NCBI GenBank assembly: GCA_041640655.1
Contig: JBEPZV010000001.1
Span: forward strand, 128,001 to 192,000
DNA length: 64,000 bases
Source: a bacterium
GTDB taxonomy: Bacteria > Acidobacteriota > Blastocatellia > HR10
Reading direction: 5' to 3'
A program made the translations under genes and the position numbers. How positions within the stretch are numbered: the first letter of the stretch is position 1; each line of letters opens with the position of its first letter. Shown piece after piece: positions 16,627-33,077 of the stretch. The notes below the pieces were generated by a model. The model searched no databases. It was given only the letters and a program-made list of their open reading frames with translations, and was not told where the DNA came from.

Positions 16627-17144
16627 CGAAGATCCTCGAACGCAACGTCAACGTGAAGATCTTCGACGATCGCGGGCCATCCCTGCGCGTGCAGGGATCG
16701 CTGCTTGATGTCGAGCACAGCTTTCACCTGGAGTTGATCGTGGAGGTCCAGACCGGACGTATCCTCTCCGCGCGCGCGGAGATGATCAAGCGCCCGTATC
16801 CCACGCTGTGCCCGCCCGCGTTGCAAAACGTCGCCCGCCTGGAGGGAGAGGTCATCGGACGGGGAATCAATCGGCGGATCGCCGAGCTCCTCGGCGGCGC
16901 GAGCGGATGCGTCCATCTTGTGGAGGTCGCCCAATCCGCCGTTCGCTTCACGGCCACCTATCTCATCGATCGGCGCACGGGGATGAGCGAAGAGGGATTG
17001 AGCGGACTCTCCGAGCACGAACATCGCCAGCGCTGGCTGCCCTTGCTGAAGAATACCTGCCATGTCTTCCGCGTGGAGGAGACGGAGCGCGCGCCGGTCC
17101 CCGAACACTCGAGCGCCGAGGGGCCTCGACCTCCGCATGTGTGA
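16623..17144 (+). CDS. DUF2889-like protein
   Basis: DVEH, PYPTLCP, LGGASGCVHL, KNTCH; ATGA overlap with the upstream gene. Confidence 0.7.
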   Translation: MTKILERNVNVKIFDDRGPSLRVQGSLLDVEHSFHLELIVEVQTGRILSARAEMIKRPYPTLCPPALQNVARLEGEVIGRGINRRIAELLGGASGCVHLVEVAQSAVRFTATYLIDRRTGMSEEGLSGLSEHEHRQRWLPLLKNTCHVFRVEETERAPVPEHSSAEGPRPPHV

Positions 17145-17178
17145 TCCATTCCCCGGAAGGGAGAAAGGAGGGAGAGAG

Positions 17179-20130
17179 ATGCGTTCACCGATCCGTTCCA
17201 TTCGCCGCGCGAGCCTCGTGAGGAGGGAACACATGGTCCTTTGTGAACTGATGGGACTCGCGCTTTGGTGTGGCACCCTGGCCCTGGCGGCGCAGACGCC
17301 GGCCATGGCGAGTCTGAGTGGGAGCGTGACCGATCCGGCGGGGAATGTCGTCGCCAGCGCACAGGTGAGCGTTCGGAATTTGGATACGGGCATCCTGCAA
17401 CGGGTCGAGACCAGCGAGCGCGGCATCTATCAGTTCGTCTCGCTGCCGCCGGGACGATACGAGCTGAAGGTGGAGGCCGTCGGCTTCGCCACGAGCGTCA
17501 TCCCGGAGGTCCGATTGACGGTGGGACAGGCGGCGACGGTGGACGTCACCTTGAAGGTGGGGACCGTTCAAGAGACGATCGAGGTGACGGCGCCGACGCC
17601 TCTGGTCGAGCCCACGCGCACGAGCCTCGCCCAGGTGCTGGAGGAGCGACAGGTTCATGAGCTGCCCATCAACACGCGGAACTTCGTGCAACTGACGCTC
17701 ATCACGCCCAAGGTCGTTCCGGCCAGCGCGGCCAGCGGACGCGGCGCCTACATGGGCGATCGGTATAAGGAGAATCAGTTCAGCTTCAGCGGACTGCGCT
17801 ATCAATTCAATTACCAGACGGTGGACGGGGCATCCTCCTACGTGTGGACGGCCAACGTGGTGAAGTCGTTCTACTCGCTGGAGACGGTCAAAGAGTTCCG
17901 CGTGCTCAACAGCCTCTACACGGTCGAGCAGGGACACGCGATGGGGGGGATCATCACCGTGATCACGCGCTCGGGGACGAACGAATGGCATGGGACGCTC
18001 TACGAGTTCCTGCGCAACGATAAGCTCGATAAGACGGACATCCTGACGACGCCGGGCTTCAGCGCCTTCCGCCGGAATCAATTCGGAGCGGCCGTGGGGG
18101 GACCGCTGGCGCGGGATCGCGTCTTTGTCTTCGGCAACTACGAAGGGCAGCGACAGGCCAAGGCCCCGCGCTTCCCCGCCGTCTACCTGCAAAATCTCGA
18201 CGCCATCAATGCCGCTCTGGCGCGCTTGGGCTTCCCGCCGGAGACGCCCTATGTCCTGCAGACGGCCGATACAGATCAGTTCCTCCTCCGGTTCGACGCC
18301 CTGCTCAGTCCGGTCCACAACCTGATGGGGCGCTATAACTTCTACAACACCGAGAACGCGAACGATCGGATCGGAGCCTCGGGCGTGACCGGGGAGCCGA
18401 TCACCACGCTCGCCGCGCGACACCACCGGTTACGCGATCAGGGCGTGGTGCTCTCGCTCAACTCCACGCCGTCCTCTCGCTGGGTCAACGCCGCCGTCTT
18501 CGGCTTCGAGAAGCATCGCTATCGGCTCGATCCGAGACCCGGCGTGCCCTTGATCGAGCTGGCCGTCGTCGGCGCCTTCTCGACGGGCGTCGAAGCCGCC
18601 GATGAACAAGGGCTCAACGAGCGGCGATTCCACCTCTCGGACACGCTCACCTATCTGCGGGGACACCATCAGTTCAAATTCGGCATCGAATATTTGCGCA
18701 CCGACGTCTCCAATCACGTCACGCCGGGGAGCCTCGCGATCATCCCCGGATTATCCGCATTCTTGGCTCCGGAACCCATCGTGGCTCAGGTTCGCATCCA
18801 TCCGGAGCAGTACAAACTGCGCCTTCACATGAAGGCCAATCAGTTCGGATTCTTCCTTCAAGATCAATGGCAAGCGCGGCGGAACCTCACCTTCACTTAC
18901 GGCCTGCGCTACGACGTCGAGCGGATTCGCGGGATCATCGCGCTCTCCGAGGATGATGTGAACAACGTCCAACCGCGCGTGGGCTTCGCCTACGCGTTCG
19001 GCGCGCAACGCCCCACGGTCATCCGCGGCGGCTACGGGATCTTCATCTCGGATCGGTATCACCCATACCTCTTCATTGACGGCTTCGTCCATGGGACGAA
19101 CTTCCCGAGCTTCAATGACGCGTATCGGGCCGCCAACCCCTTCGTGCGAAAGTACAAGCCGCTGCCCGATACCGTCGCCCCGCTGATCATCACCGGAGCG
19201 GGTCCGGCGACGGCAGCGTTCAAGGATTATGTGCTGCGGGGGATCATCCCTTCAGGACCAGCCGCGCTCTTCGTCGTCATCTCGGCGCCGGATCTGCCCA
19301 ATCCGTATGCCCAGCAGTGGAGCCTGGAGGTCGAGCGACAATTGACTCCTTCTTGGGCCGTGACCCTCGGCTATTCGGGCCTGCGCTCGTTCAAGCTGCC
19401 GCTGCTCATCAATCACAACCTGAGGCCAGCCGTCGCCAAGCTCCCCAGCGGCAAGAACGATTATCAAGCCCAACTCTATGATCCGCGCTTTGGCGTGACC
19501 TACATCGGGCAACCGTTCGGCTCTTCGATCTATCATGCGGGGACGCTCACCGTGCGCCGGATGTTCGCGCGCCACATCGGACTCACAGCGAACTACGTCT
19601 TCTCGCGAGCGATTGACAACGGAGCGGGCAACAGCACCTTCATCGCGCCGGAGGACCCGTACAACACGCGGCTCGATCGAGCGCTCTCGGCCGAACACGC
19701 CAAGCATCGGTTCACCCTGAGCCTGATGGCCGACGCTCCCGCCTCCTGGCCCGGACTTCGAGGATTCGGCGTGCGGCTCCTGGCCATCGCCCAAAGCCCG
19801 CGATATTTCAACGTGACGGTCGGCTCCGATGTCAATCGCGATCTGAACGCCGTGACGGATCGCCCCGATGTGCTCGGTCGCAATACCTGGCGAGGAGATG
19901 ACTACGTCACCTTCGATCTGCGCATCCTGCGCCGGTTCCAGTTCCGAGAGCGCTACGGGCTGGAGGCCGTGGTCGAGTTCTACAATCTCTTCAATCGCGT
20001 GAATATCACCGATCTCTTCACCGTCTGGGGGCGTCCGACGCTGGCGCAACCCCCGATTGCCACCTTCAACACGCCACGCGCCGTCGGCGATGCCTTCAAG
20101 ACCCAACTCGCCTTGAAGTTCACCTTTTGA
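17179..20130 (+). CDS. TonB-dependent receptor (Oar-like)
   Basis: SGSVTDPAG, LPINTRNF, RSGTNEWHG, RRNQFG, QPRVGFAY, EFYNLFNRVN, terminal LKFTF. Confidence 0.92.
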   Translation: MRSPIRSIRRASLVRREHMVLCELMGLALWCGTLALAAQTPAMASLSGSVTDPAGNVVASAQVSVRNLDTGILQRVETSERGIYQFVSLPPGRYELKVEAVGFATSVIPEVRLTVGQAATVDVTLKVGTVQETIEVTAPTPLVEPTRTSLAQVLEERQVHELPINTRNFVQLTLITPKVVPASAASGRGAYMGDRYKENQFSFSGLRYQFNYQTVDGASSYVWTANVVKSFYSLETVKEFRVLNSLYTVEQGHAMGGIITVITRSGTNEWHGTLYEFLRNDKLDKTDILTTPGFSAFRRNQFGAAVGGPLARDRVFVFGNYEGQRQAKAPRFPAVYLQNLDAINAALARLGFPPETPYVLQTADTDQFLLRFDALLSPVHNLMGRYNFYNTENANDRIGASGVTGEPITTLAARHHRLRDQGVVLSLNSTPSSRWVNAAVFGFEKHRYRLDPRPGVPLIELAVVGAFSTGVEAADEQGLNERRFHLSDTLTYLRGHHQFKFGIEYLRTDVSNHVTPGSLAIIPGLSAFLAPEPIVAQVRIHPEQYKLRLHMKANQFGFFLQDQWQARRNLTFTYGLRYDVERIRGIIALSEDDVNNVQPRVGFAYAFGAQRPTVIRGGYGIFISDRYHPYLFIDGFVHGTNFPSFNDAYRAANPFVRKYKPLPDTVAPLIITGAGPATAAFKDYVLRGIIPSGPAALFVVISAPDLPNPYAQQWSLEVERQLTPSWAVTLGYSGLRSFKLPLLINHNLRPAVAKLPSGKNDYQAQLYDPRFGVTYIGQPFGSSIYHAGTLTVRRMFARHIGLTANYVFSRAIDNGAGNSTFIAPEDPYNTRLDRALSAEHAKHRFTLSLMADAPASWPGLRGFGVRLLAIAQSPRYFNVTVGSDVNRDLNAVTDRPDVLGRNTWRGDDYVTFDLRILRRFQFRERYGLEAVVEFYNLFNRVNITDLFTVWGRPTLAQPPIATFNTPRAVGDAFKTQLALKFTF

Positions 20131-20217
20131 GGACGTTCGAAAGCGAAGGGTCCACAAGAAGCCGCGCCCGCTCGCCCCTGAAGTGCGGGCGGTCGAGAAC
20201 GATTCGAGGAGGAGAAG

Positions 20218-20799
20218 ATGCCCGCTGTCCCGTTAAAAGATGTGAACGATCTTCCGCCTGACCTGCAGCATCTCATCGCCGAGTATGACGCGTGGATCGG
20301 AGATACGACCTTCGCCCGCGTCATCGCCCATCGGCCCGAGGCCTTTCGGGCGTTTCACGCCTTGTACGTGTCGCTGCTCGAGGGCCGCGTCGAATCGGCG
20401 ATCAAGGAGCTGGCCCGACTGCGACTCGCGCGACTGAACGGATGTGCGTACTGAACGGCGGCGAATCTCGCCTGGGCCAGGCGAAACCAAATCCCCGAGG
20501 AGAAGATCCGCGGGCTCGATGACCCCGAGCGCGGGCCATTCACACCCCGCGAGAGGGCCGTCCTGAAACTGGCCGAGATCATGGCGCATCGCTCGCAGAT
20601 CGTCCTGGAAGCGGCGGTGCTGGAGGAGCTGAAGCGCGAGCTGACCGACGAGGAGCTCGTGGAGCTCGGCATGTACTTCGCGCTCGTCACCGGATTTCAG
20701 AAGTTCAACACCGCGTTCCGCATCCTCTACGCCTGCGCGACGGAGCCGTCCACCTCACCCGGCGGCGCCGATTTGACAGAGGAACGGGAGATGCGATAA
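20218..20799 (+). CDS. AhpD/carboxymuconolactone-decarboxylase-like selenoprotein candidate (CxxU), 193 aa
   Basis: ORFs 20218-20454 and 20581-20799 are in the same frame, separated only by the TGA at 20452-20454. Joined they read KELARLRLARLNGCAY-U-TAANL..FTPRERAVLKLAE..LTDEELVELG. Confidence 0.85.
20468..20484 (+). promoter_or_regulatory. Putative bacterial SECIS hairpin
   Basis: TCGCCTG-GGC-CAGGCGA perfect 7-bp stem; the G-containing loop starts 20 nt after the UGA. Confidence 0.7.
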
Positions 20800-20803
20800 A
20801 GTC

Positions 20804-20831
20804 CGTTGACCAAACGGACGTTTGGTCAACG
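20804..20831. promoter_or_regulatory. Perfect palindrome, putative TetR operator
   Basis: CGTTGACCAAACG-GA-CGTTTGGTCAACG (13-bp arms), directly before the GAGGAGG RBS. Confidence 0.75.
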
Positions 20832-32287: not shown

Positions 32288-32396
32288 GCCGATGCCGGGG
32301 CCTCAAGCGTTCCCTCGACGCGCGCGGGCTTGCCCGGCGCCGGCGCCGTGCGGCAAGCTTGAAGCGCGGGGCATCTTCGCGAAAGGAGGAGAAGAC

Positions 32397-33077
32397 GTGG
32401 TCGTCGCACGAGGACGCGCCAGACGACACCCCGGCGAAGAGGGGGAACGCTTCGAGGAGATCTTGAGGGCCGCCGCCGAACTCTTCTATGAGAAGGGATA
32501 TCACGCGACAACGATGCAGGACGTCGCCGATCGGGTGGGGATGCTCAAGGGATCGCTCTACTACTACATCGACTCCAAAGAGGACCTGCTCTACATCACG
32601 CTCGATCAGGTCATCAAAAAGGGCGACGATTATTTCCTGCAGAAGGTCGCTTCAGCGCGCGATCCGATCGAGAAGCTGCGCCGCGCCATCGAGGCCGAGA
32701 TCGAATACGTCATCCGAGATCAGGTGACCGTCGGGCTTTTCCTGCATGAGTTCGACACGCTCTCGGATCGGCGCCGCCGTCGTATCCTCGCCCGCATGCG
32801 CCGGTTCCAGAATCGCTACATCGAGATCATCCGCGAGGGACAAGCGGCGGGCGTCTTCCGCGAGCTCGATCCTCGGCTGGTGGTCTACGGGATCCTCGGC
32901 ATGTGCAATTGGGTGTATCGGTGGTATCGGCCCGATCTCGGGTTCCCGCTCGAGCAGATCACCGCCGTCTTCACCCGCCTCATCCTCGACGGCATCGTGA
33001 AGCCGGACGCCAGGCCGGATTCGTCCAGAGCGCGGAGACGATCGGGGCGGACACCGAGATCGCGTCCCTCGAGATGA
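32397..33077 (+). CDS. TetR-family regulator (KstR2/PaaR-like)
   Basis: ILRAAAELFYEKGYHATTMQDVA..KGSLYYY; ILGMCNWVYRWYRP; GTG start after AAAGGAGG. Confidence 0.9.
   Translation: MVVARGRARRHPGEEGERFEEILRAAAELFYEKGYHATTMQDVADRVGMLKGSLYYYIDSKEDLLYITLDQVIKKGDDYFLQKVASARDPIEKLRRAIEAEIEYVIRDQVTVGLFLHEFDTLSDRRRRRILARMRRFQNRYIEIIREGQAAGVFRELDPRLVVYGILGMCNWVYRWYRPDLGFPLEQITAVFTRLILDGIVKPDARPDSSRARRRSGRTPRSRPSR

Follow-up and report, generated by a model that had tools for sequence, protein, structure and literature searches.

The gene at 20218..20799 on the forward strand of the window (the whole stretch of 64,000 nt that was analyzed) appears to encode a small selenoprotein of the AhpD/CMD fold, 193 codons long when its internal TGA is read through and with a conserved core of residues 1-173, and this TGA, codon 79, is very likely read as selenocysteine (Sec). 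One gene that databases split in two is thereby rescued, and its class has been known since 2005. Within this known class, the protein seems to represent a distinct His-less three-thiol subfamily, and the selenoprotein call itself is well supported. The gene marks an AhpD/CMD branch with a different active site, in which Asn or Asp stands in for His and a tail Cys is present; a literature search, made mostly without subscription papers, found no study of an Asn/Asp, tail-Cys branch. Because selenocysteine is usually the catalytic residue, position 79 is indicated as the working center of the whole branch. Genes of this family may already have been entered in BSepDB. As a small protein of hot-spring bacteria, it is also a practical AhpD/CMD-type selenoprotein to test.

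Two half-ORFs, 20218-20454 (78 aa) and 20581-20799 (72 aa), share one frame and are preceded by a ribosome-binding site, GAGGAGGAG, read from the sequence at 20206..20214 (+). From the ATG at 20218, the sole in-frame stop before the gene end is the TGA at 20452-20454, in the context RLNGCAY*TAANLAW, and the ORF coordinates thus bear out the original prediction of two halves joined by a single TGA. The prediction had also placed this TGA at the second Cys of a CxxC motif, as the alignment with NGCAYC of PA0269 confirms, and had described the 42 codons separating it from the second ATG as family-like; these codons have a coding score of +16.0 in a hexamer model and align with the helices of the family. 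The Pfam CMD domain (PF02627) matches across the TGA (residues 40-120, 38.6 bits versus a cut-off of 23). The conserved gap and a predicted single-domain fold argue against two genuine genes, which the prediction had named as a possible refutation. In contigs of four runs, two of them possibly the source of this DNA, no alternative base was found at 20452-20454 (21 lesser-supported differences were left out). Protein databases store the family as halves, the N-halves being spread across some 30 clusters.

The predicted Sec codon lies in the motif C76-A-Y-U79 (20443..20454, +), where the in-frame UGA aligns with a Cys of homologs and is conserved among orthologs. TGA is found at codon 79 in all 15 distinct ortholog alleles (taken from 18 loci) and in each of the nine genomes with an ortholog; these nine all come from the same order, the class being represented by 201 genomes, and a phylum sample of 401 genomes gave no further orthologs. 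Moreover, 29 of 30 database N-halves terminate at C-x-[YH], at identities down to about 52%. One N-half carries the name Acidiferrobacterales, named records assign close relatives to Blastocatellia/Acidobacteriota, and the majority of the listed runs with the gene are hot-spring metagenomes. No full-length Cys ortholog was found: identity of the full-length matches did not exceed 37% in a set of 48 matches or 40% in the best 150; the best-scoring full-length Cys relative, P0097, has 36% identity. The genome (89.8% complete) encodes selA, selB, tRNA-Sec (selC) and selD, each above its curated cut-off, and selD has its own in-frame TGA. Among related genomes, selA was detected in four of five and tRNA-Sec in four of five, with selA not found in G011 (94% complete; tRNA-Sec present) and tRNA-Sec not found in G005 (73% complete). 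The Sec machinery, the conserved TGA and the conserved hairpin described below together support the proposal of a selenoprotein with a SECIS element, and its proposed refutation, a genome lacking the machinery with close homologs that all carry Cys, is contradicted by the machinery present and by orthologs that keep TGA.

A bacterial SECIS-type hairpin is located at 20468..20484 (+), with the 7-bp stem TCGCCTG/CAGGCGA and a GGC loop that starts 20 nt after the TGA, just as the perfect stem and G-containing loop had been noticed from the sequence at the outset. The bSECIS model, as set out in the accessible text of PMC13188914, has a loop of 3-9 nt with G in the first two places, an upper stem of 4-16 bp, a distance of 16-37 nt from the UGA and an MFE of at most -7.5 kcal/mol, and the hairpin here fits it in full (3-nt loop, 7 bp, 20 nt, -15.1 kcal/mol). 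The folding energy of the hairpin is ordinary (z = -0.23, 0.18 and -0.58 for three lengths), and a 7-bp Watson-Crick stem with a G-containing loop occurs 16-37 nt downstream of 47 of 2124 TGA gene ends (2.2%) and after 1.0% of 8193 Cys codons, so that the hairpin convinces by its conservation and not alone. Synonymous divergence is 0.099 at codons 84-89 versus 0.444 elsewhere, the lowest of 144 six-codon windows, and Arg88 is encoded by AGG in 13 of 15 alleles, AGG accounting for only 4% of the Arg codons of the genome. Across 13 sequences, 91 of 91 stem cells are paired, compared with 14-45% in slid controls. The stem changes are one compensatory C-G to U-A and one wobble U-A to U-G; the compensatory change is a single event shared by two sister genomes, and the covariation score was reached by 10 of 500 shuffles. 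The residues that the stem encodes, LAWARR, are conserved at the protein level too. Furthermore, a comparable hairpin is found 3' of the TGA both in distant AhpD-like genes and in further Sec candidates that this genome encodes. These results indicate that the hairpin is under selection.

The predicted structure is an all-helical AhpD-like domain (pLDDT 93.1), whose fold matches are 13 AhpD-like entries with Z of 16.7-19.7, and Foldseek concurs on the family. Its active site is predicted to lie in a hairpin of two helices (60-73 and 77-89) bearing Glu64, Cys76 and Sec79, which agrees with the AhpD-type peroxidases/reductases PA0269 and M. tuberculosis AhpD. The residues of the proton relay known from PA0269 are partly retained: Glu64 (20407..20409, +), the equivalent of PA0269 Glu36, is invariant (8 of 8), Cys76 and Tyr78 are likewise present, and Sec79 takes the place of PA0269 Cys51. 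Four residues past the second Cys, where solved AhpD-like proteins have an invariant His (PA0269 His55), the protein has Asn83 (20464..20466, +), which is Asn in 15 of 15 alleles. A conserved tail cysteine, Cys173 (20734..20736, +; motif YAC), lies immediately past the last helix and is present in 15 of 15 alleles and in 23 of 24 database C-halves, P0098 being the one without it, and pLDDT drops from 96 to 63 in the block containing this residue. Invariant residues beyond the CxxU motif include those of WIGDTxFAR and LVTGFQxFN. A PF02627 match above the gathering score combined with CxxU agrees with a CMD-like selenoprotein. The protein scores 47.4 on TIGR01926, versus a cut-off of 81.8 and 178.6 for a paralog in the same genome, and 58.6 on the YciW-related NF053654, versus a cut-off of 310; NF041047 and NF041238 gave no match at E 0.001. 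It is likely that this His-less branch with an extra tail Cys has a somewhat different chemistry, as a redox helper of the surrounding pathway.

At the other end of the protein, 14 of 24 C-halves stop two residues past the position of the tail Cys, and in G010 and G011 (loci L031 and L032) the stop just after the tail Cys is TGA. A second Sec at the C-terminus was rejected as very improbable, because no model-fitting hairpin was found 3' of that C-terminal TGA stop, TGA is the usual stop, extended forms lack Cys there, and P0098 stops there without a Cys.

Sargasso Sea data led in 2005 to the prediction of AhpD-like and CMD-like CxxU selenoproteins (PMC1088965), which are abundant in GOS data (PMC2398784); they have predicted status in Table 1 of a 2026 inventory, whose accessible text gives no AhpD/CMD-type selenoprotein as experimentally verified (PMC13188914). 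The present protein is like the CMD-like (PF02627) and AhpD-like (COG2128/TIGR01926) CxxU selenoproteins in its CMD domain with U at the second Cys, the SECIS just 3' of the UGA and the Cys homologs elsewhere, whereas it differs from the known AhpD-like CxxU class by falling below the TIGR01926 and NF053654 cut-offs, by Asn in place of His and by the tail Cys. Its best PDB sequence match is PA0269 of P. aeruginosa (PDB 2O4D/2IJC; E 1e-15, Z 17.5, about 30% identity), with which it shares Glu, Cys-Ala-Tyr and the helix hairpin, and from which it differs by Sec for Cys51, Asn for His55, an additional N-terminal segment and the tail Cys. In PA0269 the relay consists of Glu36, Cys48, Tyr50, Cys51 and His55, and both Cys and the His are invariant (PMC3141380). 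The AhpD of Streptococcus pneumoniae (PDB 6E8L) has the same AhpD fold (Z 18.5) at 14% identity. Meng et al. in 2020 are said to have assigned that protein a three-cysteine active site, its third Cys reportedly lying in the last helix, versus the tail position of Cys173 here.

Among 122 CxxC rows, the tail Cys is present in 40 of 42 with Asn or Asp at position 83 (eight of them the Sec family) versus 1 of 36 with His, an association that largely mirrors one clade and not independent cases. Two quick, midpoint-rooted trees of partial samples (the second with 65 rows, namely 55 of 129 and 10 other Sec genes) make the Cys protein P0097 the sister of the Sec family (support 90 and 98) and nest the two in an Asn/Asp, tail-Cys clade (support 92 and 87). 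Another ten Sec AhpD-like genes of Acidobacteriota lie on the opposite, mainly His-type side of the tree, and a single origin with them is rejected, since forcing all 18 Sec rows into one group gives a p-AU of 8e-37. As the nearest relatives are Cys proteins that share the Asn83-type residue and the tail Cys, Sec was probably gained separately on this branch, and so the loss of His and the tail Cys would have preceded the gain of Sec. The notion that selenium replaces histidine was rejected as the cause of the loss, because the histidine was apparently lost before Sec was gained: Asn or Asp is likewise present in P0097 and in 31 more Cys proteins of its clade. Other Sec AhpD-like genes retain His. 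Taken over the superfamily, these results suggest repeated Sec gains within AhpD/CMD proteins. Other split AhpD-like CxxU genes with hairpins were also seen in Acidobacteriota, at loci L036, L038, L047, L052, L079-L081, L085 and L086. In plasmid searches for the context of the Cys sisters, P0013 and P0114 gave no match, P0107 gave two weak partial matches, and P0001 and P0097 gave distant ones; the best of these matches, L110 (Arg-type, with a tail Cys), adjoins an EthD gene in an unrelated setting. An Atlas look-up of P0097 returned only CMD clusters without a named function.

The gene belongs to a cluster that spans about 53 kb on one strand and contains CoA ligases, CoA transferases, LLM oxidoreductases, short-chain dehydrogenases, a SnoaL-like protein, thiolases with ChsH2-type partners, hydratases, acyl-CoA dehydrogenases, ETF and a TetR regulator. 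One of the cluster LLM proteins exceeds the F420-type cut-off, and the genome encodes cofD. Judged from these gene families, the substrate may be of steroid or terpenoid type. The membership in a catabolic cluster, claimed originally, is upheld by a fixed place, with a glyoxalase-family gene and an amidohydrolase downstream in 15 of 15 ortholog loci (L054-L068), all close kin in a synteny sample of one order only. The adjoining TonB-type receptor gene (17062-20130) is present in 14 of these 15 loci. It is absent from L067 and also from beside the gene in L031 and L032, three loci in which DUF2889 is directly upstream, and the TonB-type receptor is thus not a fixed partner. The gap of 87 bp between the receptor and the gene has no terminator-like site, which makes their co-transcription plausible, and the link between the gene and the receptor is weak. 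A GC-rich hairpin was seen at 20163-20190, past the receptor gene and ahead of the ribosome-binding site. This receptor, the second of TonB type, shares only about 27% identity with the first; given also its absence at this place in the sister family, either a later insertion or a loss is suggested. A general partnership with DUF2889 was rejected, as all eight of the other Acidobacteriota loci with DUF2889, and likewise the DUF2889 locus of the same genome, lack a CMD gene within about 1.5 kb.

At the 3' end of the gene, a sigma-70-like promoter (TTGACA, 18 nt, TAAAGT) that would serve the downstream genes is found at 20773..20802 (+) and overlaps the variable tail, and the TTGACA hexamer occurs in 10 of the 10 loci listed. 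It is followed at 20809..20826 (+) by a palindromic operator-like site, ACCAAAC-N4-GTTTGGT, present in 10 of 11 loci searched. Because these promoter- and operator-like sites are conserved, the gene is probably the last in its upstream unit, and the overlapping promoter could explain the variable tail past Cys173. Two further copies of the palindrome, with 2 mismatches, lie near the cluster start, at 1635 and just before the window (G000:C1:127483). For the Thermus regulator TTHA0973, the pattern CNAACGNNCGTTNG has been described (PMC6651687), and the palindrome agrees with it. It is likely that the promoter-like hexamer and the palindrome mark a regulon of the cluster, and the TetR gene at 32292-33077 (TetR_C_24) is the likely regulator.

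We favor, at a probability of about 0.6, that the protein is a Sec79-containing small selenol/thiol reductase serving this CoA-dependent breakdown cluster. The delivery of Sec-tRNA by SelB bound to a hairpin is established in bacteria, and almost certainly SelB would here bind the GGC-loop hairpin and deliver Sec-tRNA at codon 79. Occupying the position of the second AhpD cysteine, Sec79 would attack an oxidized substrate, most likely a hydroperoxide or an oxidized thiol (CoA disulfide or the catalytic Cys of the cluster thiolases) arising in the pathway. Cys76 would resolve the Sec79 adduct, and Cys173 on its mobile tail would then pass electrons to the Cys76-Sec79 pair and re-reduce it. Such a Cys173 shuttle would have been set in a branch that lost the Glu-water-His relay, and a selenol is ionized without a base. 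CxxU has been described as the redox motif for AhpD-like and CMD proteins (PMC1088965), and a weak thiol-dependent peroxide-reducing activity is given for PA0269 (PMC3141380). Since His55 is described in the same source as essential and invariant for AhpD-type catalysis (PMC3141380), peroxidase-type chemistry is not assured here; nor is a general need for this protein as a peroxidase evident in a genome that already has a His-keeping AhpD-like and a Prx-type Sec candidate. The original prediction had argued from the receptor for a role beyond peroxide defense. Such a role is suggested by the missing His and the extra Cys better than by the receptor.

Alternatively, though this is doubtful, the selenoprotein could be a dedicated pathway enzyme like Bmp8, its redox pair reducing a bond in an organic intermediate with removal of a halide, oxygen or sulfur substituent from a steroid-/terpenoid-like intermediate of the cluster. 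With Z 19.7 (rmsd 2.1 A over 172 residues), the tetrabromopyrrole debrominase Bmp8 (PDB 6OHI/6OHJ) heads the fold matches, the fixed place of the gene is among F420-type LLM oxidoreductases, CoA ligases, thiolases and hydratases, and the invariant non-motif residues (WIGDTxFAR and LVTGFQxFN) could form a pocket. However, four other AhpD-like entries come within 1 of this Z (18.8-19.6, the second Bmp8 entry included), identity to Bmp8 is only 17%, and a halogenated substrate is not indicated. The debrominase reportedly depends on a histidine, which we take to correspond to Asn83 here. Bmp8 is described as a dehalogenating CMD homolog inside a small-molecule pathway, biosynthetic versus catabolic here, and Sec is not reported for it in the accessible text (PMC7918430). 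A far-reaching proposal, which we regard as unlikely, is that the protein belongs to an uncharacterized His-less three-thiol branch in which Sec was gained independently, and would catalyze a dedicated reductive step in an undescribed F420-/CoA-dependent steroid-/terpenoid-type pathway, a swinging tail Cys replacing the AhpD proton relay.

Improbable, too, is a metal or metalloid site formed by Cys76, Sec79 and Cys173 together with Asn83, which would make the protein a chaperone or sensor, not a redox catalyst, with the zinc- or iron-dependent enzymes of the cluster as clients. Three conserved S/Se ligands along with the loss of the catalytic His would fit such a role, as would the zinc-ribbon, amidohydrolase and glyoxalase-family proteins of the cluster, but the tail is predicted at low confidence, the relay residues Glu64 and Tyr78 are retained, and the third Cys is missing in P0098. 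A nonsense pseudogene or two genuine small genes, to which the storage of the gene as two pieces in databases and the use of TGA as the main stop of the genome (2130 of 2579 called gene ends) might point, are extremely improbable, because the same TGA is retained at 59-95% protein identity, residues are conserved on either side of it and within the 42-codon gap, the hairpin is under synonymous constraint in a genome with complete Sec machinery, and the predicted single-domain fold requires both halves.

The other Sec candidates of the genome are among 11 rows chosen by eye from a genome-wide list that is mostly noise and in which no formate dehydrogenase Sec gene was conspicuous; one of the 11 rows, L108, seems to be spurious. 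A second AhpD-like candidate, at L104:624-1262 (-), near 218158 of G000:C1, has CFYU, keeps the His, scores 178.6 bits on TIGR01926 and has a 7-bp hairpin with a GGA loop. Four candidates occur within about 5 kb in L103 (G000:C1:52500-61500), namely a CopZ/HMA-like CPLU protein, a WCU protein, a YUPVC protein and an AGULT protein. The latter three had no match in NCBIfam; we take them to be a small membrane protein, a secreted protein and an OsmC-like protein, respectively. In L105, L106 and L107 (G000 C5, C15 and C45), UXX-star, peroxiredoxin-like (TGGU) and DsbA-like (UxxC) Sec candidates were seen. Among the candidates with similar hairpins, the TIGR01926 AhpD-like and UXX-star proteins score above their cut-offs, and the Prx-, DsbA- and CopZ-like proteins score below theirs.
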